A DNA stretch of 64,000 bases from Obrimoposthia wandeli (Eukaryota), in contig CDROCS010000294.1 of assembly GCA_977020255.1 (NCBI GenBank), positions 1 through 64,000 of the forward strand. The letters are read 5' to 3'. Below are positions 1-36,683 of this stretch, in pieces. The notes beneath the pieces were generated by a model. The model was not told the DNA's origin and made no database searches. It was given only the letters and a program-made list of their open reading frames with translations. Made by a program: the position numbers and the translations under genes. Within the stretch, counting starts at the first letter, position 1. Each line of letters starts with the position of its first letter.

Positions 1-830
1 AAAGATATGCAGCTACACACGCTTATTTTAATAATAAAATTGATTTCTATTATCATAAAGGATTGATGCAAATGGAACAGTTATATCGGATGATGATTGA
101 AAGAGATTGCCAGTTAAACAAAGAGATCGTGAGAACAAAGTTAGCATTAGCTATTACGAATCCAGACATGGCGGTAACCATTATTACCCTTGGATGAAGG
201 AGTGATTTGCTAAAACCATGGAGAAGTATTTGTATACTTACAGAATTAATAGTAGAGGTACAGTTGAGAAAAACAAATCGATGTACAGGTGAATTGGCAG
301 TAACGTATAATTTAAAAGATCTTTTGTTGAACCAATCACGAAATGTTACTTCAAAGACACCCCAACTAAAGAAATCAGCTGCTCTAATATAATGGCACCT
401 GAATATCAGATGACGAATAATCTATGGATAACGTTACCTGATCGGGAAGCCAACGAAAACCCCAGCGACTATTGATAAGAATGACGAATCTTAAGGTAAA
501 TGAAATTCCAAGCGGTGGAAAATATGGAGAACGCAAGTTGTACAATGAAAAAAGATTTAAAAGCGGCGTGGAACGAAATAATGTTTCCAGTAAGAAGAGC
601 CAGAGTACTTTGCGGAGATGGTACATCGAGCATTACCGCCAGGAGCGAGATATGCGAATTTCGATATGTTATTATCGCCAAGTCATTTCAGGAAGCAGCA
701 TGAACACTTAGAAAGATGTGGGGGAAATTCCTTGTCTTAGGACAACTATTTTCGGGTATCATAGGTATTTATGTTATAATTAAATTTGTGCAGGTAATTC
801 TTAGGTGTTGTCTACGTATAGTTTATACAG
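1..830 (+). pseudogene. C-terminal part of chuvirus-like envelope glycoprotein, frameshifted
   Basis: Manual translation across frames gives RSFVEPITKCYFKDTPTKEISCSNIMAPEYQMTNNLWITLP, KDLKAAWNEIMFPVRRARVL and KMWGKFLVLGQLFSGIIGIY. These match element B's FVEPITR...KEINCSNIMAPHY...IWITLP, EDIDKLRKEILFPQIRSRIL and KIWGKFLIFGQAFSGLVGIY. Confidence 0.88.
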
Positions 831-1259
831 GATAACCGGAATCACCTGGCAACTTATAATTGGATGTTTTTCCATTTTAGCAAAATATCTAATGCACCAT
901 CACGAGAACGAGTTGCGAGCCCTCAAAAGAAGGAACAACACCAAACGAGAACCATGATGAGAGAACCAAGAAACTATCGAGACGACAACGACGACGATAA
1001 TGATAGTCCAGAAGATATGCAAAAGATACCAGGAAAACCAAAGATTCCGTTACCAGACAAGGAAAAGTGGCGTTAAACCTATACCCAGCAGAAGGAATTG
1101 AAGGAAGAGAAGGAAAAATTCAAGAGAGGCATCTTAATGATAAGATGGCTAAAGTGAGAAACGCTACAGTGAAATTCCACAAGCAGAGGAAAAAGACAAA
1201 AGATAATTCCAGAAGAATTCTGAAGTCTAGGATATCAAACGAGAATCCCAATGCTCCTA

Positions 1260-1545
1260 CAAGTAGCAGTAACATTGAACGGAAGAGAGAATATCTTGCC
1301 GAAGTTGATACCGGATCTGCAGTATCATAGTACTGAGTAAAGAAATATCTTGTCATCAAAAGAATTAAGAGAGAAGTATGTCCTAGAAAACAGACATTTG
1401 TTAACGTGAACGGTACAGATGTAGTGTCGGAAGGAACGCTGAAATGTTCATTGAATATCGATGGAAGAGTATTACAGTTAAATGCTAGAATATTCACAGA
1501 TTGCGGTAGTCCAGTCATGCCATTGGGATGGACGTAATACGAATG
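1260..1545 (+). pseudogene. Retropepsin-like aspartic protease domain no. 1, frameshifted
   Basis: EYLAEVDTGSAVS (DTG at 1307-1315), followed in another frame by FVNVNGTDVVSEGTLKCSLNIDGRVLQLNARIFTDCGSPVMPLGW (flap and C-terminal strands). Confidence 0.75.
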
Positions 1546-1844
1546 TTTGAAGGAATAATTATACTACCAAACAACAAGAGTTATAAGAATGATGACAGTT
1601 CAGTGAGAGAGAGATAAAAATGTTGAGAGGACCTATAGTCGAAAAGGAAAAATGCACTACGTTCCGTATGGGAAGTTCGTACCCAGACAAAAACAGGAAG
1701 CGCTAGCAAAGTCGATACTTCACTACAAAATGTAAATTTCGGACCACAAGATACGACGAGGAGAAAAATAACATATGTAAATCTGTCAGAAAGGGATCCC
1801 ATGAGATTCGAGAGAGAAGAAAGAGGGCAGAAATATATTAGAAC

Positions 1845-2035
1845 AGTACTATTCAAAAGGAATGGCACGTAAATGGCAAGATCAGGTTTAGAAATGCTAA
1901 ACGCACGACAAGTAGTTATGGTCAGGAGATAGTAGTACGATGCGTATGGTGTAGAGTAAAGTTTAGAGAATGGGAACAGAATGAAAACCCAATGAGACGT
2001 CATAAAGAGATGCACCAAATTGTCCATTTCTTTTG
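1845..2035 (+). pseudogene. BIR (baculovirus IAP repeat) domain, frameshifted
   Basis: MARSGL... then VVRCVWCRVKFREWEQNENPMRRHKE/APNCPFL: exact C-x2-C-x16-H-x6-C spacing after one frameshift. Confidence 0.8.
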
Positions 2036-2224
2036 AAACTGAAAACGTCAAACGTACCAGAAATCAAACGGGAAAAGCACCCGATTTCGATTACAGTGAT
2101 GGGATTCCAAAGGAGAATCAGCTCTAATAACAGGTATTAGAGTAATAACGAATAGTCGAATTGAAGATATATTCGAAGTTATGCGAGAAGTGAACGAATG
2201 TGACGAACAGTATCAGTAATGCTT

Positions 2225-2395
2225 TCGAAGATCCAAGACTTAAAAATTGGCAAAAAGGGACTTTTTATAAAAAGGATAGTAAAGACGTAATTAAATGCCA
2301 CAAGTGTAAAAAGAACGAATTATCGACAGATACACTCTGGAGCTACCTAAGAAAATTTTGTACACATCATGAATTTTTGCGAATTTTGTACTTCT
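2225..2395 (+). pseudogene. Second, degenerate BIR-like domain
   Basis: RLKNWQKGTFYKKDSKDVIKCHKC resembles the BIR motif GFYY-x-G-x2-D-x-V-x-C-x2-C. The His/Cys half cannot be recovered cleanly. Confidence 0.45.
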
Positions 2396-2684
2396 AAAAA
2401 ACAAAATAAAGCAAAAAGAACAGAAAACCGAATGTATAATCGAATACCAAATCACACGAAAAGAGATTTTGGCTCAACAAGACACACCGGTAGTGTCATT
2501 CGTGAGAGGGTTATATATCCAAAAGAAGCAGAAAGAATCAGAGAGAATTGGTAGAATTAAAAATAAAAACTACGCTTGCGAAACGGATACGGATCGATTT
2601 TTGAATACTGCGAGATAAAGATGACAGTACAATTGAAACAAAGAAAAAGAGTACATAAATGAACTAGAATACGTACTAGAAGAT

Positions 2685-2815
2685 CCGGAATGCGCAGTTT
2701 GCATGGTTAACAAAATAGAAGTTGCCTTTCTACCATGCGGACATGTAGAACATGTCGGAGATGTGCGAATGAAATGGTATCATGTCCAATTTGTCGAAGA
2801 ATAATAGATCGACAA
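2685..2815 (+). pseudogene. IAP-type C3HC4 RING finger, one frameshift
   Basis: ECAVCMVNKIEVAFLPCGHV + RTCRRCANEMVSCPICRRII, typical of IAP C-terminal RINGs. Confidence 0.85.
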
Positions 2816-2919
2816 GTGAGAAACATTAGATTTCACTATCCAAATATAGGAAGTGGACTGACAGAGTGTAATAATTCGATAAATACAATATACCATATGG
2901 GAAACATAAATGGGGCACA

Positions 2920-5900
2920 GCGACCAGCAGCTATCATTAGAGTAAATAATTTAAGAGTAAAAGCCTTAATCGATACAGGTGCTGTAGCTTCAATAGTAAG
3001 TGAATACTGTTTGACAGAGGAACAGAAACGAACAATGGCAGAACCAGATGAATTTTGGTATCGGTCAATGGAGACCCTGTAAAAGTGACGGGAATATTAC
3101 CATGTACATTTATAATTGGCCGTACTACGATTACCTTACCAGTTAGAATCATGAAGAATGTCCTGAACCTACAATTTTAGGAATGGATGTATTATCACAA
3201 CTCAAAGGGATAAGTATTGATTTACAAGATCCAAGATTGAAGGATAGCACATCAAACAGACAAATAAACCAAATTGATGTAATTATAGAATCCCTATAAA
3301 AATCGGTATTAAAGATCACAATTTCTCATTCAAGGTCACACATTATCAGAAGATAAAGGACCAGTTGTGTTCGAACCATCACGAGATTTCATAGAGAAAT
3401 ACGAATTACCAGTTGTGAGTACAGTATGCCTGATCGAAAACCATAAAATACCAGTTAGACTGATGAATACAACCAACAATGACATTCTATTATACAGAGG
3501 AATGAGGTTGGGAAAGATAGCACAAATGGAGAATCCCACAGTGTGTGCTATGAAACTCGATAAAGACACGAATGATTACGAAGAAATAGTAATCCAATCA
3601 GAAAGACTGACAACTAGAGAAAAACAATTACTTGACCTAATACATAAATTTCCGAAAGTAATTGCAAAAAATCCATATGACATAGGAGAAACACCTGTCA
3701 TAAAACATACAATACCACTGACAGAAGACAAAGTAGTCAGAAGAAGACCATATCGAGTACCATTACAATTACAAGATGAAGTAAAAAGTCAGATCGAAGA
3801 TATGTCTAAAACAGGAGTAATTAGACCGAGTGTTCGGCAGTGTCAGCAGCTGTGGTGTGGGTAAAAAAGAAGCAGCGGAAAATGGGGTTCTGTATAGATG
3901 TCAGAGAACTGAACAAGATCACAAGAAAGATGTGTATCCACTACCTAGAATCGAAGAGATGCTCGATAAATTGGGTAATTCAGATTATTTTACAACATTA
4001 GATTTGCAGAGTGGATACTGGCAAATCGAGATAGAGAAAGAGGATAAACACAAAACAGCCTTTTCCTGCGGAGATGGATTATACGAATGCGAAAAGATGC
4101 CATTCGGACTGACAGGAGCTCCAGCAACATTTCAGCGTTGCATGAATTTTGTACTCGCATCGTGTGCAAACACGATGGTTTATATCGATGACATAATAAT
4201 ATTTTCGAAAACGTTCGAAGAACATTTAAAAATCTTGAAGTTGTATTTAAAAGACTGGAAAATGCTAAATTAAAAGTTAAACCTACAAAATGCGTATGGG
4301 CTAAAGAGCGAGTAACATTTTTAGGACATATAGTATCGAAAGGGCATTCGACCTGATCCGGCAAAAGATCGAGAAGTAAAAGCGCATTTAGCGCCAAAGA
4401 CTGTTAAGGAGATACAGAGTTTTTAGGTCTGGCGAATTATTATAGACGATTTGTTGAACATTTTTCAGATATAGCAACACCATTGAGAAAGTTGACGAGA
4501 AAAAGATGAGAAGTTCATATGGGGAGAAGAAGCCCAACAAGCGTTCGAGCATTTAAAGAAAGATTGATAAAAGCACCGATATTAGCGTTTCCAGATATAA
4601 ACCGACAATTCATACTCATGACAGATGCAAGTAACTATGCTGTAGGAGCAGTATTGGGACAAGAGGATGACGAAGGAAGAGAACACGTCATTGCGTATGC
4701 GAGTAGAGGATTAAACAGAGCCGAAAGAGGATACTCTGTTATCGAAAAGGAATGTCTAGCCATAGTGTATTCATGTAGAGCAAGTACAGACACTATTTGC
4801 TAGGACAAAAAGTATTCACTGTATACAGATCACAAACCACTACAGTTCTTATATAAACATAGAGATGAGATGAGTAGATTAAACAGATGGTTTCTAAAAT
4901 TGGCCGAATTCGATCTAGAAATCCGTTATAGAACCGGAAAGTCGAACGGCAACGCAGATTGTTTGTCGAGATTGACAAATGTAGACGAAAGAAACATAAT
5001 TCCAGAAGAAGATGAAACCAATGACCAAAAGGAGAAGCAAATCTACTGACGATTTTGCTAAAGACGAGGTAAAAATAGACAAAGAGATCATCAAAGAACA
5101 GAAAGAAGATGAAAGAACTGAGTCTAATCAAAGAATTGTTGGTGAAAGGAGATCTAAACGATGAAATGACGAAGAAATACTCGATAAAAGAAGGAATCTT
5201 GTATATTGTCAATAATGTCGGAAAGATAGTAGTAGTAATTCCGAAGTCATTGAAAACAGCAGTGATGATCCAGTATCACGACGGAACACTAGGAGGACAT
5301 CTGTCAGGGCGAAAGACAATAGCCAGAATCAAAGAAAGTACCATTGGGATGGTATGGAAGACGACATAAAACAATGAATTGTAAACAATGTAAAGTGTGT
5401 TTAACCAGAAAAGACACCGGAACTCGTACTAAAGTTCCGTTGAAACCAATACCAGTTCCCTTGGCACCAATGGAATTCACAGCGATGGATATATTGGGAC
5501 CATTGAGAGAATCAAGTAAAGGAAACAAGTATGTCATAGTATTTACGGATTACATGACGAGATGGGTAGAAGCATATCCCATGCAGAACCAGAAAGCTGA
5601 AACAATAGCGCAAATCTTGGTGGAAGAGATAATATTTCGATACAGGTGCCTAGAAAGTTGTTAACGGATCAAAGGAAAAGAACTTCACTGGAGAAGTCAT
5701 AAAAGCAGTATCGAAGATATTCGGAATTATGAAGTTACAAACTTCACCATATCACCACAGACAGATGGTCTGGTAGAAAGGTTTAATAAAACTTTATGTA
5801 TGATGGTACAATCCTATTGCTCAGACAAGCAAGAGAGGATTGGGATAAATATTTACCTTCATGTTTATATGCTTACAGGAATTCAGTTCGAGGCGACAGG

Positions 5901-6205
5901 TCACACACCATTCTATCTGATGTATCTCAGACAGAACAATATGCCGATGGATCTGGAGTGGACCGAGCCAACATCTCAGTACCTAGAAACTGAACAATAC
6001 ATTGTCGTCATGAAGGAAAGATTACAAGATGCTTGGACCAAAGCCGGATTGAAGTTGAAATTCAATCAAAGAAGGTTACAAGGAACAATACGACAAAAAG
6101 CAAAACCACATGAATTTAGAGTCGGAGATCAAGTGATGATATTTTATCAGTCATCGAACCAGGTCTATCGTTTAAACTTCATAGACCATACAAAGGACCA
6201 TACAA
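2920..6205 (+). pseudogene. pol: Ty3/gypsy pol (protease no. 2, RT, RNase H, integrase), many frameshifts
   Basis: VKALIDTGAVAS; YPLPRIEEMLDKL, TLDLQSGYWQIE, MPFGLTGAPATFQR, YIDDII; LMTDASNYAVGAVL, YSVIEKECLAIV; GGHLSGRKT...CKQCKVC; MDILGPL, FTDYMTRWVEAYP; GPY motif near 6195. Confidence 0.95.
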
Positions 6206-6206
6206 G

Positions 6207-7634
6207 GTGATCCAGACAACTTCAACAAATTTGAAAGTAATCAACGAAGAGAATCGGAACAAGGAACCGATGATTGTACATGCAAATCGATGCAAATTAG
6301 TACCAAATAAAGATAATGCGTCACGATATGAGTTAAGATCACAGAAATCGAAATCGAATACCAATACCATTAAACTTACACGAATGGTAAGTGATCGGAA
6401 CTACATAAACATGATGACGAGTGGTAGCAAGGAAAAACCAGCGAGAATTGGTATGCTCAGAATGAAGTACCAAGAGGAAAAGGAAGTAATCCGACACATC
6501 GCACCACAAGAGATATTAGAAGAAGACGAAGAGATAATAGTCGTTTTCGAAAAAACACAACCAACAGATGTAGCTAAAGAAGTCATTGTGAAAGATGCAC
6601 TGACAAACGAATTTCTGTGCGAACTTAGAGTGTCATATTACGACGGAAATACATTAGTCGCATCACTTTATCAAAATTCCAATGTGTTTACGACTGAGAA
6701 AGTGATAATCGAAATCACATTGACACCAAACATAGTTGCATGGCAGAACTATGACAGTACTGAAGCAGGACTAGCCAGTCAGGAAGAGAAGGAACCGGCC
6801 GGTGGTCACATACTGCATGGTACACCAACAGGACTCAAACAAGAATACCACGATGTAATAATGGTATTACGTAATTCACATGGGAAAAGAGATATCATGA
6901 GAGTCCATTTAATCGACGCTGACACTGAAAAGATAATTTGTCAGATGGACACTAAATACTTTGATGGAAAGACAATTGTATGTTGTATACCAGAATCTCA
7001 CCGGTTAGAGACAGATCAAACGGAAGTATCTGTAAGGTTGAGCGTAATAGAAGGATTCCATTCGCCAACCCATCCGGAAGTGACTAACAATAAAATCATC
7101 AAAGCAACGGCAGAGTTACGCATTGACAGCGGATACCGGAAGTGGGAAGCTAAAAATAAAAAGCCACAAAGAATCAATATGATCCGAGAACAAGTGACCA
7201 ACTCAATCCAGCCAAAATATCATGCTGAAATAGTATCATCCGCGCCAAGTGTAATCACATCGATAAACGACGAAATTATAATTTTACTAAAAAATCGATG
7301 GCCGTCATCAACTGAGATACGAGTAAACTTAATTAATTATGCGAAAACACCGATATCTAAGCTGAATGTTACCTATTTTGATGGATTGTCCATCATGGGT
7401 AAATTGGAAACAATTGTCATGTGCTACGGAGCACAGTTCCAAGTTGAGATACTTAAAGATAGTGTAATACCGTATCCGATTCACAAATACGAAGGGGAAA
7501 TCAATCCAATTATTCTAACACCTTCATTAATTTCAGTCAGACAGACATACCGGAATACCCTTCGAGCGAGTCTAGTGAAGACAGCGAACCGGAAAGTAAC
7601 GATACAGAATCAACAGAATCCGAAGATAACATAA
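6207..7634 (+). CDS. Integrase C-terminus fused to three ~80-aa repeats (TIG/IPT-like Ig fold, inferred)
   Basis: HANRCK...RYELRS integrase tail, then three repeats with conserved I-x4-P, [DE][EV]I[IM][VI][VLF] and Y[YF]DG at near-constant spacing (about 6486-6722, 6807-7049, 7227-7457). An open acidic frame from about 7540 links to the next ORF by one frameshift. Confidence 0.7.
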   Translation: MIQTTSTNLKVINEENRNKEPMIVHANRCKLVPNKDNASRYELRSQKSKSNTNTIKLTRMVSDRNYINMMTSGSKEKPARIGMLRMKYQEEKEVIRHIAPQEILEEDEEIIVVFEKTQPTDVAKEVIVKDALTNEFLCELRVSYYDGNTLVASLYQNSNVFTTEKVIIEITLTPNIVAWQNYDSTEAGLASQEEKEPAGGHILHGTPTGLKQEYHDVIMVLRNSHGKRDIMRVHLIDADTEKIICQMDTKYFDGKTIVCCIPESHRLETDQTEVSVRLSVIEGFHSPTHPEVTNNKIIKATAELRIDSGYRKWEAKNKKPQRINMIREQVTNSIQPKYHAEIVSSAPSVITSINDEIIILLKNRWPSSTEIRVNLINYAKTPISKLNVTYFDGLSIMGKLETIVMCYGAQFQVEILKDSVIPYPIHKYEGEINPIILTPSLISVRQTYRNTLRASLVKTANRKVTIQNQQNPKIT

Positions 7635-7654
7635 TAGAGCGATTCGGAAGAACC

Positions 7655-9637
7655 ATGGAGGTTGAATTCGCTAAAGAAAGCAGAAAAAGACAAAACATAG
7701 AATTCGTGAAACAGAATATACAAGAAAGACGAATTAAATCTGCAGAAGAGACCGAGTCGGAAGAAGACTCAACAAAGGAACAGACATCAGAGACAAAGAT
7801 GAATACCTCTCCAGCAATACGAATGCTGAGAGGAAAGAAACTGGCAAAACTAACCAACATCGACGAACAGATAGAGAAGAGATTAGAAAGATTAAAACTT
7901 GAAGAGTCAGAATTAATGCCACAAATGAGTGAGATCATTCCAGGTAAGTTGTACCTCGGAAATGTGGAGGATGCAACAGATGAAAAGAAACTGTTGGAAC
8001 AAGGGATAACATACGTGATCAACGTTACAATGAATCACAAATCACAATATCAGACGATCAGAGCTATGACATTAAGAGTAAAAGACTCAATGGACGCTAA
8101 TCTTCTCGAATGGTTTGTAGAAACAAACGAAATACTTCACAGAGAACTCCGGAACAAAGGAAAAGTGTTGGTACATTGTCAGAAAGGAATTTCTCGATCA
8201 GCAACCCTAGTATTAGCATATCTAATAAAGACTAGACGAATGCAGGTACTAGAAGCGTTAAAATACCTACAGGAGAGAAGAAGTATTGCAAACCCAAATC
8301 TTAATTTTTTGGGGCAGTTGGCAAATTACCAACTTCTGTTGCAAGAACAAAGACGGATGGACGACATTCCTGAGGACCCAAAGGAAAAGAATTTCCTTCA
8401 AGCATTATCACTGACTGGGTTATTTTTAGCCGGAGTCGACAAAATTACACAAATAATGCCAAAAGTATTTTTATGTCATCCAGGAGATATAGATACTGCT
8501 GGATTAAAGTTCCATAGTATCAACCGAGTAATCAACATTGTTGAAATCGGAAACGAGATAATTAGTCTGTGTCAAAATACTGAAAATGACACCACTCGAT
8601 ACATACATGCTTCCAATCGAGAGATAAACGATGCACAACAACATCTGACGAAATTGACTCAAACCATCCAAGCTGAAGTCACAGAAGGAAACGGCGTTCT
8701 GATATATCAGAAAAAAGGTACAATGTTAGCGCCTACCATAGGTGTATCCTTGTTGGTAGAGTACCATGGTCATACGCCAGAAGAAGCGATGGTCTACATC
8801 AAACAGAATAGACCAAATACGGAATTCAAACCGTTACTCGTTCGAGAAATAGAGAAATACACCGAAAAGAGGAAGCAACAACGAGAAACAAATGAAGCTA
8901 CAACAACAGTGCCCAGCTTTCAATACCAAAGATTGCTAGCGATAGGCTTGTTAAGTTGTTTAATGCCGATAACGGGAGCACAAGAAATAGACTCCAACCC
9001 CGGAAATAGTTCCTGGTTCAACGAAATCCAAAATTACACCATACAGTACCATACACCGGCACTGATGATGCTATTAGTATTGTTAGGACTAATTGATGTG
9101 TGGATCATCCGAAAATGTATTCGATCTATGAGAACCGACAGTAAAAGATTTCAGTTTGTAAAGATGAAAAGACCAAATGGACCAACAAACAAAGTGCTTG
9201 TGTATCTAGACGAAAGGATCGAAGACAACATAGTAAATGAAGCGATATTTTACCCACAAAACAGAATACTGAATCAATTCCGAATAGATTACGAAGCTGA
9301 CCGACAGCACACACTTGACCAAATATCAACAACATTCGCCGGATGCAAGCGGAGAAAACGAGTTGTAAAGGAAATACAAAAAGATGCTGATACAAAAGGA
9401 CCAACGTATATATTCGATGGCGATGTCATCAAAACACGTGAGTATGGAAGTAAGAGAGTGATAATTGAAACAATGGAAGGACATAAAACATGCTTGTCCG
9501 CCAAAAATGGATTCGGAAAGTTGACGATACAAGGTAAACCGGTACAGTTGATTATCGGAAGAGATGGAATCGAGGAGATGTCAAAACAACGACAGACACG
9601 ATCAGAAACAGATATCTCTCAAACGATTGATAATTAA
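7655..9637 (+). CDS. Polyprotein segment: active dual-specificity phosphatase + pseudophosphatase + signal-like and TM segments
   Basis: DSP1 about 7919-8338 with VLVHCQKGISRSATLVLAYL and NPNLNFLGQL. DSP2 about 8441-8860 keeps the fold motifs, but its P-loop is VLIYQKKGTMLA. Hydrophobic stretches at about 8930-8983 and 9056-9109. Confidence 0.9.
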   Translation: MEVEFAKESRKRQNIEFVKQNIQERRIKSAEETESEEDSTKEQTSETKMNTSPAIRMLRGKKLAKLTNIDEQIEKRLERLKLEESELMPQMSEIIPGKLYLGNVEDATDEKKLLEQGITYVINVTMNHKSQYQTIRAMTLRVKDSMDANLLEWFVETNEILHRELRNKGKVLVHCQKGISRSATLVLAYLIKTRRMQVLEALKYLQERRSIANPNLNFLGQLANYQLLLQEQRRMDDIPEDPKEKNFLQALSLTGLFLAGVDKITQIMPKVFLCHPGDIDTAGLKFHSINRVINIVEIGNEIISLCQNTENDTTRYIHASNREINDAQQHLTKLTQTIQAEVTEGNGVLIYQKKGTMLAPTIGVSLLVEYHGHTPEEAMVYIKQNRPNTEFKPLLVREIEKYTEKRKQQRETNEATTTVPSFQYQRLLAIGLLSCLMPITGAQEIDSNPGNSSWFNEIQNYTIQYHTPALMMLLVLLGLIDVWIIRKCIRSMRTDSKRFQFVKMKRPNGPTNKVLVYLDERIEDNIVNEAIFYPQNRILNQFRIDYEADRQHTLDQISTTFAGCKRRKRVVKEIQKDADTKGPTYIFDGDVIKTREYGSKRVIIETMEGHKTCLSAKNGFGKLTIQGKPVQLIIGRDGIEEMSKQRQTRSETDISQTIDN

Positions 9638-11079: not shown

Positions 11080-11662
11080 TCGAAAGTAAACGACATTCCA
11101 AGAAACCGACAGTGATCAAAACAAAGACAGAAGCGAAAGAAAAAGAGTCAATCCCAGAAACCAAAGTACAATTATTAAGAGGACAAGAGTGAGGGAACGA
11201 TCCCTAGATCCCAAACATCATTTCCAATCCAAAATAATAATACCTGTTCCATCAGAAACAAAACACCCAAATCCCCGAATTTTTAGAAAATCGGACATAA
11301 TACATGGAAACCGATCAAAACCCATGGAAATATCATTCGAACCGACAAACGACAAAATGAAGTATGATTATAAAACATCAGACAGCGGAATAACAGCGGT
11401 CAATGCCCTAGTGGAATGGCCGTAGTGTCAACAGCGGTGGTTCTACTTACAATCGTGTGCGTAAAAGGCAGTCAAGTATGCCCAGGAATACGACGAAAAT
11501 GCGAAGGATTGCGATGCTGTGACACACCCATCATGGAGGAAGTGGAATTGCGACCCTTACCTCCACCTCCCATCAAGATATGATGAGTCAGAGGAGGTTG
11601 TAGATAAATCAGTGTGTGAAATATGTAGAAATATCTAGAAGCGATTGTACAAATAGTAGAAG

Positions 11663-11671
11663 TATATAAAA
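11663..11671 (+). promoter_or_regulatory. TATA-like box upstream of RING ORF1
   Basis: TATATAAAA starts 44 bp upstream of the ATG at 11707 in a short AT-rich intergenic gap. Confidence 0.4.
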
Positions 11672-11706
11672 CTCATGTAGAAATTAATCATCATCATGTA
11701 TTTAGA

Positions 11707-12006
11707 ATGGCCGAAGAATGCCCAATATGTTTAGAAGATCTAACCGAACGAAGAACAAGACCCGAAACCTGCAACCATTTACACCACGAGGAATGTTTAT
11801 CGACATGGATCAGAACTTATGGACAGTTCGGACACCCAACATACCCTCGTTGCCCTATATGCAGAAGACAATTCGCAAGATTCGTCATGTTAGAACCCAA
11901 CCAAAGGGATGTATATGTACAGGTGGTATTCTGCTGGAAGAATTTCGGAGAGTGTTGGTGTTATTACTGTTTGTCAGATCGACAAAATCAGACCACTTTT
12001 GTGTAA
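11707..12006 (+). CDS. RING-H2 protein 1 (99 aa) with C-terminal Cys cluster
   Basis: CPIC-x13-CNHLHHEEC-x3-W...CPICR, then CWKNFGECWCYYC. Confidence 0.88.
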   Translation: MAEECPICLEDLTERRTRPETCNHLHHEECLSTWIRTYGQFGHPTYPRCPICRRQFARFVMLEPNQRDVYVQVVFCWKNFGECWCYYCLSDRQNQTTFV

Positions 12007-12066
12007 AGATCACACAAACACCAGTCCTCAATCGAGCCCAAATTCAACATCAACCCTCCCACAGTA

Positions 12067-12369
12067 ATGTCTGGAGAATGTTCCATCTGCTACGAGAGCA
12101 TCGTGGACTTCTACACCAAGCCCAACAACTGCGACCACCTTTTCCACGTCGAATGCCTCGAGACGTGGATCCCCATCAAACAGCAACAACCCCTCGACTT
12201 TCCAACCTGCCCGATGTGCAGAGCGACCTTCTCAGTACACTACGTGTACAACCAAGACAGCCTCCAAGCAGTGGTACCCATCGTACACTGCTGGAAAACC
12301 ATCTGCGATTGCTGGTGCTCGTTCTGCGTGGAGGAGCGAAGCACAGGCCAGCCCAATCCCCAGCAATAA
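12067..12369 (+). CDS. RING-H2 protein 2 (100 aa) with C-terminal Cys cluster
   Basis: CSIC-x13-CDHLFHVEC-x3-W...CPMCR, then CWKTICDCWCSFC. Confidence 0.9.
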   Translation: MSGECSICYESIVDFYTKPNNCDHLFHVECLETWIPIKQQQPLDFPTCPMCRATFSVHYVYNQDSLQAVVPIVHCWKTICDCWCSFCVEERSTGQPNPQQ

Positions 12370-12703
12370 TCGAAGGTAACTTTCTGACTTGAACGTGACA
12401 TCATGAACTACCCTGTGTATCGCATACCGCGATAAATTAGCTACCATAATTGTAATCATAATTATATAATCTTGTGAACTGTAAATTGACCATTACCATT
12501 TTTATGTATGATGTTTAACTGAAATTGTAATTATTATACTGAATTTCTAAAAAATACAATTTTTATGCTTAGTGTGAATGCGTAAACATGCCTAAAATCG
12601 AAACAAAACTCGGTAGGATTAGATAACTAAGAATTCATTTTGAAATAAAATTTAAATTAACGATGAGAACGGTGAACCCCAAATTAAAAGGAGTCATTTT
12701 CTC

Positions 12704-13240
12704 ATGCAGATGTTGTGCTCCGTATGCATGGAGAAGATTTGGGCGGTATCAGCATCCCCTGTCGGCTGCCGTCACAAATTTCACGAGGAGTGCCTCTATT
12801 TGTGGACCAAGGTTCGAACCTCCGGACAAATCACCTGTCCACTGTGCCGGACACCCTTCGCCAAATGGACACTCCAGAGCCGGGGAAGACACAAAGGCAC
12901 CCGATCGCCTGCCAGCTGCATTGGTGGCATCCATTGCCGATGCTACGTGTGTCTCGCACGCCGGCGCGACACACAACTGGGCGTCCGCGAGAGATGGCGG
13001 TCTAGTCGAGACTGCCACTCGTGGTTCCAGGCCAGACGGCACTGGATTGAAAGCCATAACATGAACAGGCAGCACTTCGACCTGTTCATCGACAGCCCGC
13101 ATTTGACCCGGAGCCAGCAACTCCATTTGTACAACGGGGACAGTCCGTCCTTTCCCGACCTTCCCCTGGAACAGGTTCTACGCTACCTGGCCAGTCGGAA
13201 CCAGCCAACAATTACAATTGATTTGACATACGACAATTAA
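12704..13240 (+). CDS. RING-H2 protein 3 (178 aa) with Cys cluster and C-terminal SIM-like motif
   Basis: CSVC-x13-CRHKFHEEC-x3-W...CPLCR, CIGGIHCRCYVC, ends TITIDLTYDN. Confidence 0.88.
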   Translation: MQMLCSVCMEKIWAVSASPVGCRHKFHEECLYLWTKVRTSGQITCPLCRTPFAKWTLQSRGRHKGTRSPASCIGGIHCRCYVCLARRRDTQLGVRERWRSSRDCHSWFQARRHWIESHNMNRQHFDLFIDSPHLTRSQQLHLYNGDSPSFPDLPLEQVLRYLASRNQPTITIDLTYDN

Positions 13241-14011
13241 TCCTTTCCTCCCTTCTTTCCTTCCTGACCTTGGTTATCGTGTAATTTTGTGTGTAAATTT
13301 TTAGTTGTGCATGGTTAATAGTGTATACTTTGAGACTTGCTCCAAATTATATATTATGTTTCCCACTGGAAAACCGAGATTTTGAAAAAATTGTTTTTGG
13401 GCATGTTTGTTGAGGTTGAATGATTGATTTTGTAGGGATGAACCTAAAATCAACAGCCAAAGGCTTATTAAGTAAAATCGATACGTTCCGGGGACGTAAC
13501 TTTTTTGGAACCCCCGAGGTATGTTAAGGTTGAGAATTAAGAAAATTAAATATTTTAGTTGATTAAATACTAAAATAAAAAATCCTTGAAAGCAAGGTCG
13601 AAAATTGAATTAAAATATTAATTTAAGTTTTAGAAGTAAAATTAGTGAAATTTAGGGTAAATTAGGAGGACCACGAAGGTCGTGTATTATGCGAAAATGT
13701 ATAAAAGTTTAAAGTTAATTAACCAAAAGGAACAAAATAAGAATTAATTAGAAGAAAAACGGTTAATTACAACCGTCGCTCAAGGATCCCCAAGGTAAGC
13801 ACATTTTCGTGCAATAAACTAAATTTTGTTTGCAGCTGTCAATTGATTGACATTGCAATATTCTCTCCGGGTTCGCTGAAGAAAGACTCAACGCAGCCGT
13901 CAACTGATTGACGTCCAGTGCCAATATATAAAGGCAGGTTTTCCAGCTAGAATCACAAATACGGAATCGCCAGAAGAAACAAAGACAGGAAGCAACAATC
14001 CCCTCGTCAGA

Positions 14012-14591
14012 CGAACCGTTGATTGAAGAGTCGAACCGTTGATTGAAGAGTCGAACCGTTGATTGAAGAGTCGAACCGTTGATTGAAGAGTCGAACCGTT
14101 GATTGAAGAGTCGAACCGTTGATTTAAGAGTCGAACCGTTGATTGAAGAGTCGAACCGTTGATTTAAGAGTCGAACCGTTGATTGAAGAGTCGAACCGTT
14201 GATTGAAGAGTCGAACCGTTGATTTAAGAGTCGAACCGTTGATTGAAGAGTCGAACCGTTGATTGAAGAGTCGAACCGTTGATTGAAGAGTCGAACCGTT
14301 GATTGAAGAGTCGAACCGTTGATTGAAGAGTCGAACCGTTGATTGAAGAGTCGAACCGTTGATTGAAGAGTCGAACCGTTGATTGAAGAGTCGAACCGTT
14401 GATTGAAGAGTCGAACCGTTGATTGAAGAGTCGAACCGTTGATTGAAGAGTCGAACCGTTGATTGAAGAGTCGAACCGTTGATTGAAGAGTCGAACCGTT
14501 GATTGAAGAGTCGAACCGTTGATTGAAGAGTCGAACCGTTGATTGAAGAGTCGAACCGTTGATTGAAGAGTCGAACCGTTGATTGAAGAGA
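14012..14591. repeat. 20-bp minisatellite (CGAACCGTTGATTGAAGAGT) x29 inside LTR A
   Basis: Exact 20-bp period. Three units carry a G>T change (at 14121, 14161, 14221). Confidence 0.97.
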
Positions 14592-14702
14592 CGAACAGTC
14601 GATTTCGAAGACGATTCCGCCAGGCTCGCAAACACCACATACGGACCCTACACCGGACGTCCCACGAGTTGCTGTAACTGGTAAGAACACAGACTAGGTT
14701 CA

Positions 14703-15140
14703 TTCATTGCCCCTAGTAGGCAATTAGGATATATTCATTACCCCTAGTTGGTAATTCTATATTTTCTTAATCATACACAAATTCATTGCCCCTAGCTGGT
14801 AATTAGGATCACTGTCTCTTTACCACAATCATTGCCCCTAGTTGGTAATTAGGATCGGACCTTTATTCATTGTCCCCAGCGACAATTAGGAAACCTACCA
14901 GACGTTTTTTCCCGTAAGATTCATTGTCCCTAGCTGACAATTAGGTTCATTCATTGCCCCTAGTTGGTAATTCGGATAAATATTCATTGTCCCTAGTAGA
15001 CAATTCGGTAAGACTCATTGTCCACTAGCTGACAATTCGGTTCGTTCATTGTCCGTAGTTGACAATTAGGAGTAAGTTTTTATTGTCATCTTGACAATTA
15101 GGTTTTTAGGAGATCCCTTGTCTACAGTAGACAATTTGGG
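14703..15140 (+). repeat. Array of 12 short inverted-repeat (hairpin) units with variable linkers inside LTR A
   Basis: Consensus TTCATTGYCCCTAGYWGRYAATTMGG. 6-bp stems with 5-8 nt loops; linkers about 4-29 nt. Confidence 0.9.
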
Positions 15141-18100
15141 TCAAACATACACAGAGAGAGTAAGGAACAAAGAAACATTTAGCTAGAGATAAGAAGTAGG
15201 AGCGAAGAAAATTAAGAGAGTTGCGTTATAGATTAACCAACCTGAGTAAGAAGACTAAACCTAAGAAACTTAATCACCTGAACGTAAAATCGATACGTGG
15301 TTCATCCCCACTTCTTGTAGAGACTCACGGAAGTCCTTTAGGAATTTTATCATACTTTTTAGAAATACGTACATAAACGTATTGTGGTATTAGTTACGTG
15401 AATTTTGAATAAACAATTTCCTACATTAGAACAAGTTGTTTTTACACCCTTCAGACTAAGAGACATCAAATCAAACACCTTCAGATAGTACAAGAGATTA
15501 GGCAACCATAACACTAAGTAGGCCACGACCAACTTTAAGACCTGCTTCTAATCGAACTCACGTTGGGGCCCTCCGCACACTAAGAGGCTCTATACCAAGT
15601 TTCGTATAGAAACCCCAACAATTTCGCTATAAATAGTACGAGGATTTTCTCGACATTTAAATATTTTATTAAGAATTTAAATATAAAGAATAAATTAGGT
15701 TTCATCGATTCCTTCCGAAAAAAACACCACTTTTTGTTAACAAGTGTAATAGGCAAAAATCTAAAATAAAATTTATAGATATTTTTAAAATTAACTAACC
15801 TTTTTTTTAATAAGATCTTTATTGTTCTTTTTCAAAAATATATTTTGTCAAGAGCTAAATATAAGTACTATAAATAGCTATATTTTAAAGAATGCAAATA
15901 TAAGCAGAAATATACATAATATGTATAATATAGATACAAAAATTATTTAATTTTTACAACCAAATAATTTATTTAAATAACGTAAATACCATTTAAAAAA
16001 TCTCTGTACAAAAATGAATCTAGAAAAGTTCCCTTGTCTACTGTAGTCGACTAAACTCATTTGATTTGTTTAGATTTATCACCAACCAGGTATTCATTAT
16101 GAGCCAAATTAAAGTTTACAATATCGTCGTAATTTGATTGGCTAATAGTTATTTTAAAAAATCTGGGTTTCTCTTCCCTAATGCATGACGTCATGCAATC
16201 AAGAGGCAACCTGTGAGTGTGTGTAGTAATAATCAATAATAAAGAATGCTGCCGAATCAAGTGTAGCAGACAGTGAATTTTTTTAGTCTTCTGGTGCCTG
16301 AAGGGACTCATTTGAACAAGCTCTAGCATCTTTTAAAACAAGCTAAATATTTGAAGATCTGTTGACTGCATGGGAATATAACATAGTGCAATGGACTACT
16401 CGTGTGGTTTCGCGCCTGGGTTTGGTGGTTCTTTGAGAAGGGGTGGTAATATTCGAAAATCGTTATCAGTTTCTTCAAAATACATTGGAGGAGCAGATTA
16501 TGGTAAGAATTTATTTGGGTGTTTTGAGGAAAATATTTAACTTTAAAACTATTTTGTAATTAAAAGTTTATTATAATCCCATTTTGAATCTTTGGATTTT
16601 ATGTCTCGTACATCTCGTACATCGCTACATAACATAAAAGTAGCTGGGTGTTTAATTGTTTAAAATATTTACTATTTTATTTACTTATCTATCTGTGATT
16701 CGTAAATTTTGGCAGAGCTCTTATTTCTCCATAGAAATCAATTTTCGGCTTCGAATTTTAAGTTTTATTGTTTTCAGCTTATTTGCTCTGCATCAAAACT
16801 TTAAATAAACTATTTTTATAACTTTAAATTTAGGGATTAAGTGAGAGAATGTCAACCAGAAATTCGAATACTAAAACTATGAACCATATATACATCTAAC
16901 ATTTATCATTTCAGTAATTGTCGTAATTCTGTGTAGAGCAGCCGTAGACATTATCAAATTTTTACGTTTAAATTAAATTTATTCTCATTGTGGATTTATA
17001 ACAGTATCCATCTATAACTTTTGAGCTGCGTAAAATTCCATTGCGTGTCACCAGTTTGAGACAAATTTTTTTTCTTCTGCATCATACATTTTATAGTTTT
17101 TGTGCAAAATTACTGTAATTTTCTTCTATGTGATGTTCAATTTATCAATATATTTTATTTTCTCATCGGATTTATCAACTACAGAATGTTAACCAACTAG
17201 ATACAACAGAAGTTATCAGAGTGGAAATCGCAAATCTTCTTGATAATTACCAAATATTCTCAAAGTTAATTGTCAGCACCAATGTTAAAATATTAGTGCC
17301 CTAAAACGTTTTTATTGTAAATAAGTAATTTTGAAAATTTTAAAATATCCCTTAAAATATTTTTTGGGAAACAGGAAATTTTACGTTATATTTGCCTTGG
17401 TAAAGCTTAGTAAAATTTTCAAGTAGAAAATTGTTATGAGATCAAAAACAATCATTTCAGTAAACTATAATCTGTATTTTTATTTAATAAATTACAAAAT
17501 AAGTGCTGTTGAAAATCAATATTGCATATTCTGATTTGTAGACAAGCTCCAGCACAAATTTTGCTACTTTAAAAGCGCAATAAGGAAATTTTCCATTCTT
17601 CCGCCTATTGCATCCCTCACTTTCATTGTTAAAATATGAATTGTGTGTGTGGTAACTACGGGGGATGGTGTTAGACTTCCAAACAGGTTAATGGGATCCG
17701 AGAGAGTGGGATATTTTTAATGCAATATCCTTTTATAATGTTATTTTATGGAAATGAATAGTCTATAAACAAAAAAACAGGAAATCTATTTTATATCCTC
17801 TATATCTTGACATCACAAAACTCCACTTTGATATGAAAGCTAAACTTAGAGCACCACTGAAGATCAAATCACTAAAATATATTAATAGCAATTTTTTTCA
17901 TTGTGACCCATGTGGTTGATGATTACTAGTTAAAGCTTGAATATTTGGTTGTATTGAGATTAGTAATTTGAGCGTAATTATTACGTTTATTGATTGGAAA
18001 TAAATTATATTCTTTGCTTGAATATAAATTATATACAAATATCCAGCTTCAACCAAATAATAACTGAAAAATACTCAAAGCTGGAGATAAATGTTCTTTT

Positions 18101-33865: not shown

Positions 33866-33954
33866 ATAGAAATGATATGTGATGGAGTGGTCAACAATAA
33901 AGATGAGAAATAATAAAAAGGATATTTGTTAATAAATAGAATAATAAGTAATAA

Positions 33955-35129: not shown

Positions 35130-36305
35130 TTAAATGTTGTCCTCAGAATCAGAGGAGGTGAGATCTATAACTTCATATAGGTCATTACTGGCAATGTAGG
35201 GGAGAGAGACAGTCAGTCCACATTCTTTTATTAGCTCTTGCTCTTTATGGAGGAAAATTTTTCGGGTCCATTGCGTGTCTATGAGGCTAGAGTGGGTATT
35301 CTTTTGTATTTCTTTATTGAAATACCACGAAACTATTCGAGCAAGTCCGGCTTGTTCTCTACGGTTCATTTCCATTTGAATAGTTTGTGTTGCCCCTAGA
35401 TCAACCGTGTGCGAAAAATCGTTTTTTTGTAATCCTAAAACTTTGAGATCGTTGGATATTCCCGTCCCTACGAAAATATTGTCTCTTAGTAAGGATTGGA
35501 CACGTTCTAACACTTCGACAGAATCAGGTTGGTTTCTTAACTTCCGTTCATTAAGGCCCGTTATTCTTGTCACATAATTCCTGATTCTGTCTCTGCTATT
35601 GCATTTCGTATCCAACACGATCTGTCCGCTTCTATTCATTATTGTAATGCTAGCTAGGTGGGTTTGTTTGTTCATTTTTACTACCATTTCACAATCGACA
35701 AAAAATATTTGAGGATTGTTGGGTATGATATTCAAATGGCAGACTTGAACGGGATTAGGTCGCACATTTTGCTCCATGAAAAATATGTTATTTCCACCCG
35801 AAAAACGAATCATCAAATCGGGAGTTATTTGATGTCTCATTAATCTGTAAGAGTGGTTTTGCAGGAGAAGGATAGAAAAATGTTTGCTTTTCCTGTGTTT
35901 TAAAAATCCACGGCCTTTTGCTACGTGAATCTCAATGTCCGTGCATATTGGTAAGAAATTCATCAACTCAAACAGTCTTTTTTCTGTTGGCTTTTTACTA
36001 TTTATGTTGAGAATTATACTTTGTCTTGGGGTGTCTCTTAACTTAATGCTATTTGGAAGCTGGGTCTGATTGTCAAAAAGCTTTATTCCGTAATGGTTAT
36101 GGAAATACCTTGTTCCAAACTGTCTTATTTTTCCATAAAGGAACTTAGCCATTTTCGCCATTTCTGGACGTTGTTCTGCTAATTGGACCGACTTCTCTCT
36201 CTTTCCCGCGGCACCACCTGCCAGTTCAAATGAGGATTCGTGCTTGTGGGTTCCATCTGTAGGGTATACAGATATAGTAAAAAAATGTTGATCTTTTACA
36301 TGCAA
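35130..36305 (-). CDS. DEDDh 3'-5' exonuclease (ISG20/REX4-like) with unknown N-terminal half and C-terminal SIM-like motif
   Basis: ExoI FFVDCEMV, ExoII FVGTGISNDLKVL, ExoIII THSSLID; NYVTRITGL; C-terminus EVIDLTSSDSED. Confidence 0.9.
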   Translation of the reverse strand: MHVKDQHFFTISVYPTDGTHKHESSFELAGGAAGKREKSVQLAEQRPEMAKMAKFLYGKIRQFGTRYFHNHYGIKLFDNQTQLPNSIKLRDTPRQSIILNINSKKPTEKRLFELMNFLPICTDIEIHVAKGRGFLKHRKSKHFSILLLQNHSYRLMRHQITPDLMIRFSGGNNIFFMEQNVRPNPVQVCHLNIIPNNPQIFFVDCEMVVKMNKQTHLASITIMNRSGQIVLDTKCNSRDRIRNYVTRITGLNERKLRNQPDSVEVLERVQSLLRDNIFVGTGISNDLKVLGLQKNDFSHTVDLGATQTIQMEMNRREQAGLARIVSWYFNKEIQKNTHSSLIDTQWTRKIFLHKEQELIKECGLTVSLPYIASNDLYEVIDLTSSDSEDNI

Positions 36306-36683
36306 ATATAAAAATTGTCAACTGTCTATCAAATGAAATGTTCCTGTTAGTTATTTTGTCTCTTTTTGTTAATCAAAAATCTGTAAATCGTTTTTGTCTT
36401 TATGTAACAAGTTTAACAAACAAGGTATATAAATAAGATATGATTTTTTCATTTTTCAATATATATTCTTATTACTGGTGTTACCAATATCAATATATAC
36501 ATATCTATACTGGTATATTCATTTTTTACCTATTCTTAATTTTATTATTACTATTTCAACTAAAGTTAATGAATATTAATACCCATTCATAAACGCATTT
36601 CCTCTCCAAAAACATGCCAAAAGCCCAAACTCATTCTCAATTTTCTTTTATTTTATATTTTATTTTACTCACTGGGGATTTTA

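Follow-up and report, generated by a model that had tools for sequence, protein, structure and literature searches.

An inhibitor of apoptosis between two selected retropepsins in a Burro-type giant retrotransposon of Obrimoposthia wandeli

Introduction

LTR elements are, to our knowledge, drawn with one protease. At the locus considered here, close to the start of the 64,000-nt stretch of DNA that was analysed (the window), two retropepsin domains, PR1 and PR2, enclose a protein of the inhibitor of apoptosis (IAP) type. The question is what an IAP is doing inside the polyprotein of a retrotransposon, and why there should be a protease on either side of it. The first-pass annotation of the window took the arrangement to be a protease duplication that had bracketed a captured IAP for its excision, a reading that is weighed below against the other copies of the element and against its relatives.

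The element and its copy in the window

What the window contains is a damaged copy of a Burro-type Ty3/Gypsy element that is 23 kb long and present in high copy number, with thousands of search candidates in the genome; the comparison with Burro is by domain descriptions, homologue searches having returned no Burro1 sequence. The domain order is Gag, F (fusion glycoprotein), PR1, IAP, PR2, RT, RNase H and integrase, and the upstream order (Gag, CCHC, candidate ubiquitin-like and weak Bcl-2-like stretches, and F) would match that of Burro. The longest open frames have 4,985 and 5,301 residues, the longer one interrupted by a single stop within the F match; Burro elements are described with one ORF of some 4,900-5,100 residues that starts with Gag and CCHC. 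In open copies Pfam recognises F (PF24664, E 1e-71, in a frame shared with PR1), two protease stretches, BIR, RING, RT and RNase H; the CCHC knuckle scores E 4e-6 and the Gag match is weak (E 0.014). Ahead of F lie the candidate ubiquitin-like domain (ubiquitin, E 0.0034) and the Bcl-2-like stretch, for which Bcl-2 is the top Pfam match, weak at E 0.057; solved structures and the Atlas gave no support, the Atlas returning nothing usable for the Bcl-2-like stretch. Between PR2 and RT, where Burro has a dUTPase-like domain, is a stretch of 106 residues that is under selection and has no Pfam match. A copy on contig C3856 has 1.73-kb LTRs (TG...CA) that are identical over their aligned length, and a 4-nt target duplication. 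Burro elements are described from dugesiid and geoplanid planarians. In a multi-copy COX1 of this genome AAA stands for Asn and ATA for Ile, that is, the flatworm/echinoderm code, and half of the sequence words recur in a marine metagenome.

The contig starts inside F. All features of the window copy are on the forward strand, beginning with the C-terminal part of F and its membrane anchor at 1..947 (PF24664 E 7e-14 and 5e-11 in two frames; alignment). Downstream of the two proteases, RT (3694-4381), RNase H and integrase occupy 3694..6300, the end being approximate (Pfam, alignment), followed at 7463..9637 by the tail of the polyprotein, where a dual-specificity phosphatase is joined by a weaker second copy of it (PF00782 E 2e-41, two stretches), and by three small RING-finger ORFs at 11629..13240 (PF13639 E 5e-10, 1e-8 and 1e-7; colinear with another copy). 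The 3' LTR, which contains a 20-nt tandem array and has a CA end, closes the element at 13522..15620 and matches both LTRs of the C3856 copy. Over the span the window copy carries 36 indels, where 48 other copies have a median of 1, and the density of its indels falls from 43 to 5 per 2 kb with distance from the contig end, an excess that looks like assembly error. When its frames are read with stops as X, the BIR (E 7e-5), the IAP-type RING (E 3e-4) and PR2 (E 1e-3) are still recognised; PR1 and the second BIR are so damaged that they give no score.

Word-index searches found no homologues, and a scan of viral contigs with a single protein found none either. When metagenome and viral contigs were scanned with profiles, the 83 loci that matched were generic RING/IAP loci, 0 of them with RT, protease or F, and the Atlas search returned generic IAP clusters only, all below 0.9.

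PR1, the IAP and PR2 belong to the element

The DTG motifs that had been placed at about 1307 and 2972 are both exactly there, and the BIR, weaker BIR and IAP-type RING described between them are present, in one frame in intact copies. The frame from PR1 to PR2 is open in 23/53 copies, and the whole run of 4,980 nt in 2 of 19 DNA-matched copies. Loci chosen by F have PR1 in 30/30 cases and BIR1 in 28/30; on the RT side, PR2, RING, UBA-like stretch and BIR2 are each present in 29/29; and loci chosen by PR2 have RING in 28/30 and BIR1 in 28/30, figures to be read with the bias toward intact copies that comes from picking many loci by protein searches. The exceptions seen, L109 and L112, are internal deletions, and duplicate loci (L102, L103, L107 and L310) were left out.

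Selection was assessed by comparing pN/pS of shared and of private changes over 108 loci, and again over 137 loci minus CpG transitions. For PR1 the ratio is 0.02 for shared against 0.76 for private changes (108 loci, p 7e-9) and 0.04 against 0.74 in the second set. The corresponding pairs over 108 loci are 0.24 and 0.62 for BIR1, 0.11 and 0.66 for BIR2, 0.02 and 0.53 for the UBA-like stretch (shared 0.02-0.05 over both sets), 0.02 and 0.87 for RING, 0.00 and 0.43 for PR2, and 0.01 and 0.48 for RT; the two linkers adjoining the IAP show no difference between shared and private changes (108 loci). BIR1 is the least constrained part of the IAP (0.24-0.30; p 0.055 at a stricter threshold), and under one of the three settings the contrast for PR2 weakens to p 0.052. 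Purifying selection thus acts on PR1 and the IAP, and PR1, IAP and PR2 are integral to the element, in frame and under selection. One stop codon in PR1 is common to 7 of about 90 copies, so some copies have spread without PR1.

The IAP

The IAP consists of a BIR, an atypical BIR, a UBA-like stretch and a RING, and its best match among solved structures is cIAP1 (E 3.5e-14). In the window, an N-terminal extension and BIR1 (core 1798-2038; C-x2-C-x16-H-x6-C; PF00653 E 5.5e-11 in an open copy) span 1712..2047, the atypical second BIR (C-x2-C-x18-H-x3-C; hhalign probability 86.9) 2205..2405, the UBA-like stretch, which aligns with the UBA region of cIAP1 (weakly, 2.2 bits), 2433..2637, and the C3HC4 RING with its tail (PF13920 E 1.7e-11 in an open copy; cIAP1, cIAP2 and XIAP structures) 2682..2842. 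The zinc motif of BIR1 together with the IAP-type RING would make this protein an inhibitor of apoptosis by its signature. BIR2 falls below the Pfam cut-off (E 0.005), yet it is real by profile-profile comparison (E 4e-6; its score of 31 compares with a maximum of 11.8 over 50 column shuffles) and is conserved in P0001, P0002, P0005 and L033. The UBA-like stretch before the RING, which the first-pass annotation had overlooked, is far below significance alone and has no Pfam match, yet is conserved and selected. Since BIR1 is the least constrained part of the protein and lacks two tryptophans of the aligned cIAP1 BIR, direct caspase binding is uncertain.

The two proteases and their relatives

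PR1 (1259..1575, DTG at 1307; alignment, Pfam) exceeds Pfam cut-offs (PF13975, 33.8 bits against 28.2; PF13650 too) and aligns over about 100 residues with DTG, flap and G-x-D helix. PR2 (2918..3224, DTG at 2972; alignment, Pfam) is a canonical RT-adjacent retropepsin. The DTG is kept in all readable copies of both (75/75 for PR1 and 78/78 for PR2). The predicted folds of PR1 and of BIR2 come from profiles.

Three relatives place this pair in context. Element B, in the same window, is also organised as Gag-F-PR-RT-RH-IN, with 61% identity to the studied family in RT and about 46% in F. Its sole protease lies directly behind F, and it differs in having no second protease and no IAP. As had been noted, element B has one protease at this position; counted with 19 related loci, all have one protease and no IAP match (20/20). 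Element B works with one protease behind F, so the architecture as such does not need PR1. P0038 has F, a protease, two C2H2-like fingers, a protease, RT-RH-IN and a further protease, and P0026 has F followed by four proteases, neither with an IAP; a fifth DTG-like word in P0026, inside a ubiquitin-like region, was dropped. The extra proteases seem best explained as an old, clade-wide trait. Genome searches for further multi-protease families returned only the studied family (30/30 F loci; 30/30 loci), family B, five bacterial-type proteases and a Ddi1-like gene, results so crowded by high-copy families that absence of other such families is not demonstrated.

Proposed processing of the polyprotein and role of PR1

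Candidate processing motifs lie on both sides of PR1 and of the IAP: I-x-M-I between the F tail and PR1 (1131..1142), I-x-M-L just 3' of PR1, at the putative N-terminal border of the IAP (1614..1625), and I-x-T-I, which fits the loose form of the motif only, in the linker between RING and PR2 (2879..2890). I-x-M-[ILM] occurs 6 times in one open frame against 1.7 expected, although the motif was defined after seeing the sequence and its p-values are thereby inflated. It marks protease borders in P0026 and is not enriched in P0038 (2 against 1.1) or element B (0).

The best overall explanation, to which we give a probability of roughly two in three, is that PR1-IAP-PR2 forms the middle of a single Gag-F-Pol polyprotein from which retropepsins free the IAP, PR1 having a distinct job. 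F would be threaded into the membrane, leaving PR1-IAP-PR2-RT on its cytoplasmic tail, where the retropepsins of the element would cleave at the motifs in the linkers. The IAP so released would have about 420 residues and comprise both BIRs, the UBA-like stretch and the RING. The RING would thereby gain a short free tail, as in standalone relatives, which end soon after it. PMC13465017 cites a 2026 Dev Cell study as reporting that B-IAP of Burro1 protects planarian stem cells, and the freed IAP, as a ubiquitin ligase, may likewise keep the host cell alive. The linker between the two proteases would be a cargo slot, holding the IAP here and zinc fingers in P0038, and PR1 would be kept for a job that PR2 lacks, most likely cutting Pol off the membrane-bound F tail, or cutting at other sites. 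That the IAP is set free by proteolysis is plausible, but retropepsins cut in trans, so a single protease would suffice for it.

Alternative explanations

PR1 might instead be an accessory effector protease, acquired as a module from a sister element, whose targets are host proteins or F and not the polyprotein; with the IAP it would form a cassette against host defence. PR1 is as close to the third protease of P0038 (33% identical), which stands amid accessory domains behind the integrase, as it is to PR2, and in the protease tree it falls outside the RT-adjacent group (82/80). In 74/75 copies it has, two residues before the catalytic Asp, a Glu in place of the usual hydrophobic residue, a change that should alter the pocket, and selection on it is strong. 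However, the tree is poorly supported and gives PR1 a long branch, PR1 sits directly behind F in the position of the sole protease of element B, and the substrates proposed are putative; we regard this account as rather unlikely.

The original proposal, that duplication of a protease bracketed the IAP for excision and that the pair exists for the IAP, accords with the position of the IAP between both proteases and the candidate cut motifs on each side, with the lack of an IAP in single-protease family B, and with a BLAST comparison in which the best match of PR1 among 14 other proteases is PR2 (62 bits), then the third protease of P0038 (57 bits). In the phylogeny of PR1 and PR2 that had been suggested as a check, a topology that joins the two is not demonstrated, nor is it rejected (p-AU 0.218); bacterial and Ddi1-like rows were dropped from the second protease tree. 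The proposal does not sit well, however, with an identity of only 29% between PR1 and PR2, PR2 being nearer to RT-adjacent proteases of other elements (34-39%), nor with the long branch of PR1, the three or four proteases that P0038 and P0026 have in spite of lacking an IAP, the other polyprotein cargo (ubiquitin-like, phosphatase) that has no flanking proteases, and the sufficiency of one enzyme acting in trans. We consider it decidedly unlikely.

It is very improbable that the two proteases of a single chain join into a tethered heterodimer of the pepsin type, with the IAP looped out: retropepsins are obligate dimers and both domains keep their DTG, but the two are 550 residues apart and relatives hold three or four proteases, one of them far downstream. 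Finally, the idea that either PR1 or the IAP arrived as a nested insertion of its own, or that the arrangement is an assembly artefact, as the badly broken window copy at a contig end and the related IAPs in another mobile family might suggest, is refuted by the near-fixed, in-frame and selected state of both in copies chosen from either side. The two conditions that the first-pass annotation had named as disproof, a nested insertion and the lack of an open frame, thus do not hold.

Origin of the IAP lineage

What is new here is that the retroelement IAP shares a clade (100/100) with the IAPs of two Polinton-like families of the same genome, to which it is 32% identical (E 4e-47); 81 of the 143 candidate rows were dropped for this tree. 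The clade is long-branched and separate from cIAP1/cIAP2/XIAP and from the DIAP1 type. The Polinton-like IAPs are standalone ORFs of 301 and 341 residues that have a TBP-like gene and an A32-type ATPase as neighbours, and their second BIR is lost in part or wholly. No host gene of the lineage was seen: all 15 loci checked from a search with the BIR of P0001 belong to a Polinton-like family, and among 30 BIR loci in the genome all but two are Polinton-like and none is a host gene of this lineage, the two exceptions being presumably one survivin-like and one BIRC6-like.

In a broader scenario, which we advance tentatively, the IAP would not stem directly from a host gene. Its lineage would move, within one host, between two kinds of virus-like element that are unrelated to each other, DNA elements of the Polinton type and a giant retrotransposon of the enveloped type, and it would have landed in a cargo slot with a protease at each end, in a clade whose members regularly retain several active retropepsins that differ in specificity. 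PR1 would then be the enzyme with the second specificity, either releasing Pol from F or acting on host proteins. IAP homologues are mentioned for adintoviruses (Maverick/Polinton) in PMC8502044. The grouping with Polinton-borne IAPs raises the questions whether DNA viruses passed on a gene held to be 'host-derived' and whether host benefit recurs.

Comparison with known systems

Like cIAP1/cIAP2/XIAP and DIAP1-type proteins, the element IAP has BIR, UBA-like and C-terminal RING domains; it differs from cIAP-type proteins in lying inside a polyprotein, in its atypical second BIR and in that no CARD was seen. IAP cargo (BIR plus RING) in Burro-type giant elements has already been published (PMC6431247). 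Burro1/GYPSM1 and Burro2-4 also have one huge ORF with Gag, a CCHC knuckle, BIR plus RING cargo and RT-RH-IN, and in them too a fusion glycoprotein of mononegavirus type lies in frame ahead of the protease; their ubiquitin-like and Bcl-2-like domains have candidate counterparts here, the latter weak (PMC6431247). However, Burro1 exceeds 30 kb, against about 23 kb here, so the present family is not Burro1 itself but a Burro-type relative. Burro1 has MATH and ankyrin domains, which the studied family has in none of the ORFs scanned, whereas the latter, unlike Burro1, has the phosphatase pair and three RING ORFs. The two proteases around the IAP are not mentioned in the text of the Burro review (PMC6431247). 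Among the matches listed, our literature search found nothing relevant on duplicated retrotransposon proteases; the primary Burro papers, which lay outside its coverage, may already draw the double protease.

The family is a relative of Burro1 whose identical LTRs indicate recent activity, in a genome other than that of the host of Burro1. Its two diverged, selected proteases, and the three or four of its relatives, make protease division of labour testable with small isolated domains. Two retained proteases, together with an IAP lineage shared with DNA-virus-like elements, are a new twist on cargo that is known from Burro.

Copies of the PR1–IAP–PR2 segment

The first-pass annotation had placed DTG protease motifs at 1307 and 2972, and both were located exactly there. 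The window copy, which lies at the beginning of contig C294 in an assembly of 1.35 Gb, is interrupted in every frame, so that with stops read as X only BIR1, RING and PR2 score. It carries 36 indels across the span, where 48 other copies have a median of 1. Indels are densest towards the contig end, at 43 per 2 kb, and thin out to 5 per 2 kb away from it; this damage probably reflects low-coverage assembly error added to decay. The segment is repeated at high copy number, with 5,778 candidates and, among them, 40 scored matches of 94–100% identity, and two of 19 other copies fetched are open across the whole 4,980 nt, with the fusion glycoprotein F, two protease stretches, BIR, RING, RT and RNase H in a single frame. 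From DTG to DTG, 23 of 53 copies run without a stop, in a set biased to intact copies because many were picked by protein search. The predicted canonical BIR, weaker BIR, RING and two proteases are all present: PR1 by itself exceeds the Pfam cut-off, while BIR2, whose variant zinc pattern is common to relatives, is backed by profile comparison (probability 86.9; score 31 vs. at most 11.8 in 50 shuffles).

That the segment might be a separate nested insertion, or lack an open frame, had been raised at the outset. Loci picked by F alone contain PR1 in 30/30 cases and BIR1 in 28/30, the two exceptions being internal deletions, and loci picked by the DNA directly upstream of RT contain PR2, RING, UBA-like domain and BIR2 in 29/29 each. 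Nested insertion is rejected by these counts.

Changes present in at least three copies, taken as having passed through replicating lineages, were compared with private changes. Across 108 loci the shared changes are nearly all silent and the private ones are not, with shared versus private pN/pS of 0.02 and 0.76 for PR1, 0.24 and 0.62 for BIR1, 0.11 and 0.66 for BIR2, 0.02 and 0.53 for the UBA-like domain, 0.02 and 0.87 for RING, 0.00 and 0.43 for PR2, and 0.01 and 0.48 for RT; the linkers flanking the IAP on both sides show no such contrast. It persists in 137 loci with CpG transitions removed (PR1 0.04 vs. 0.74), where BIR1 drops to p 0.055 at a five-copy threshold and PR2 to p 0.052 at three copies. 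Among 109 loci, DTG is retained at 75/75 readable sites in PR1 and 78/78 in PR2, and a single PR1 stop is common to 7 copies. PR1–IAP–PR2 is a real, selected feature of an element of the Burro type, the giant Ty3/Gypsy elements of planarians.

Relation of the two proteases

The first-pass annotation had proposed that a protease duplication bracketed the captured IAP. PR1 and PR2 are 29% identical, and in protease trees of 11–15 short rows, which have low power, a joint clade is neither rejected (p-AU 0.218) nor recovered. PR2 shares 34–39% identity with the RT-adjacent proteases of element B (the related family in the window), a sister family and the polyprotein P0038, and groups with RT-adjacent proteases (82/80, not starred). 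PR1 sits on a long branch and shares 33% identity with the third protease of P0038. A whole-library search yielded two relatives, the Burro-like polyproteins P0038 and P0026 from ENA contigs, with F 44% identical and RT 60% in P0038. P0038 has the order F, protease, two C2H2-like fingers, protease, RT-RH-IN, third protease, and P0026 has F then four tandem proteases, of which two share 50% identity; the IAP is absent from both. Element B has one protease, as first described, and no IAP, as do 19 related loci. Protease number, one to four in the clade, is therefore independent of the IAP, duplication to bracket it appears unlikely, and the inter-protease interval holds differing cargo (the IAP here, C2H2-like fingers in P0038). 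Literature searches turned up no account of duplicated proteases in retrotransposons, but published Burro descriptions may contain one. Downstream of element B lies a DEDD-type exonuclease ORF (35130–36317, minus strand; PF00929, E 4e-10). It lies between two direct repeats of 300 nt, 99% identical, at 33953 and 47346, which may be part of the LTRs of element B.

Lineage of the IAP

The closest solved relatives of the retroelement IAP are cIAP1, cIAP2 and XIAP. It aligns end to end with the standalone proteins P0001, P0002, P0005 and P0006, as well as with the IAPs that two Polinton-like families carry in the same genome (32% identity, E 4e-47), and these form a clade of seven (100/100) in which P0001 is sister of the remaining six (98/89). 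The tree used 62 of 143 candidate rows, several with odd composition and long branches; where its outgroup rows carry a name, they are ordinary animal IAPs. Rather than by exchange between element types, the shared lineage may have arisen by separate captures from one unseen host gene; genome searches, which high-copy families crowd, found no host gene of this lineage. IAP homologs are mentioned for adintoviruses in the part of PMC8502044 consulted.

The two families are high-copy, Maverick/Polinton-like (L033, L034, L085–L088; C399, C3067) and carry the IAP standalone, beside a TBP-like ORF (PF00352, E 7e-7, L085), an A32-type ATPase and an integrase, which in L088 has a chromodomain; a double-jelly-roll match nearby is weak, and the polymerase fragments scanned gave no Pfam match.

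Proposed processing and function

Domain order, frame and selection are established for the segment. Because the sequence of F shows a hydrophobic stretch resembling a signal, and an anchor at the C-terminus, PR1-IAP-PR2-RT would be suspended on its cytoplasmic tail. A motif recognised post hoc, I-x-M-[ILM], occurs six times against 1.7 expected, ahead of PR1, just past it and between downstream domains; it sits at protease borders in P0026, shows no enrichment in P0038 or element B, and has a looser form between RING and PR2. Cuts at these candidate sites would free an IAP of ~420 residues which, like its standalone relatives, has a short tail after the RING. IAP RINGs dimerise via the C-terminal tail, and release is therefore likely to be needed. 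Since one retropepsin acting in trans would suffice for this, retention of PR1 points to a separate job, perhaps freeing Pol from F or cutting other substrates, which an unusual Glu near its active site would help. At two tryptophans BIR1 does not match cIAP1, and of all the IAP parts it is under the weakest constraint, so that a ubiquitin-ligase role of the RING appears better supported than direct caspase binding.

Comparison with Burro elements

Ahead of PR1 the element has a weak Gag and a CCHC knuckle, then a ubiquitin-like domain and a Bcl-2-like stretch, also weak, before F. PR2 is followed by RT, RNase H and integrase, then by two phosphatase stretches and, further on, three RING ORFs. 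One measured copy spans ~23 kb, and its 1.73-kb LTRs, identical across their aligned length, and 4-nt target duplication indicate recent insertion. In L021, near 6600, a TGG-starting stretch resembling a primer-binding site begins 8 nt past the 5′ LTR. In the window, the polyprotein tail encodes a dual-specificity phosphatase and a weaker second copy (7463–9637), which are not among the Burro motifs listed in PMC6431247, section 7; three short RING-finger ORFs (11629–13240) precede the 3′ LTR, which contains a 20-nt tandem array (13849–14724; interval ~820 nt vs. ~450 nt in the C3856 copy).

Multi-copy COX1 in the assembly follows the flatworm/echinoderm code, fitting a flatworm host, and half of the sequence words occur in a marine metagenome. 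A second animal-type COX1 (L290) is read by another code, and bacterial contigs (C253, C506, C2866, C3797, C6885 and others) are also present, recognised by proteases of bacterial type and by many COX1 genes free of stops.

According to PMC6431247 (section 7), planarian Burro elements have one huge ORF that places env in frame after Gag and before Pol, and motifs including ubiquitin-like, BCL2-like and BIR. The Burro1 BIR-plus-RING protein, B-IAP, is reported to shield stem cells from caspase-mediated death (2026 Dev Cell paper, cited in passages of PMC13465017); the passages retrieved from PMC8532177, PMC11410931 and PMC10558129 add nothing on domain order. The present element shares the huge single ORF, F/env between Gag and Pol, and the BIR region, with a candidate ubiquitin-like domain and a weak Bcl-2-like match as well, but is smaller than Burro1 and has no MATH or ankyrin match in the ORFs scanned, so that identity with Burro1 itself is rejected. 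IAP cargo in Burro-type elements was already known; what appears new is the retained second protease, the multi-protease relatives and an IAP lineage common to Polinton-like elements.
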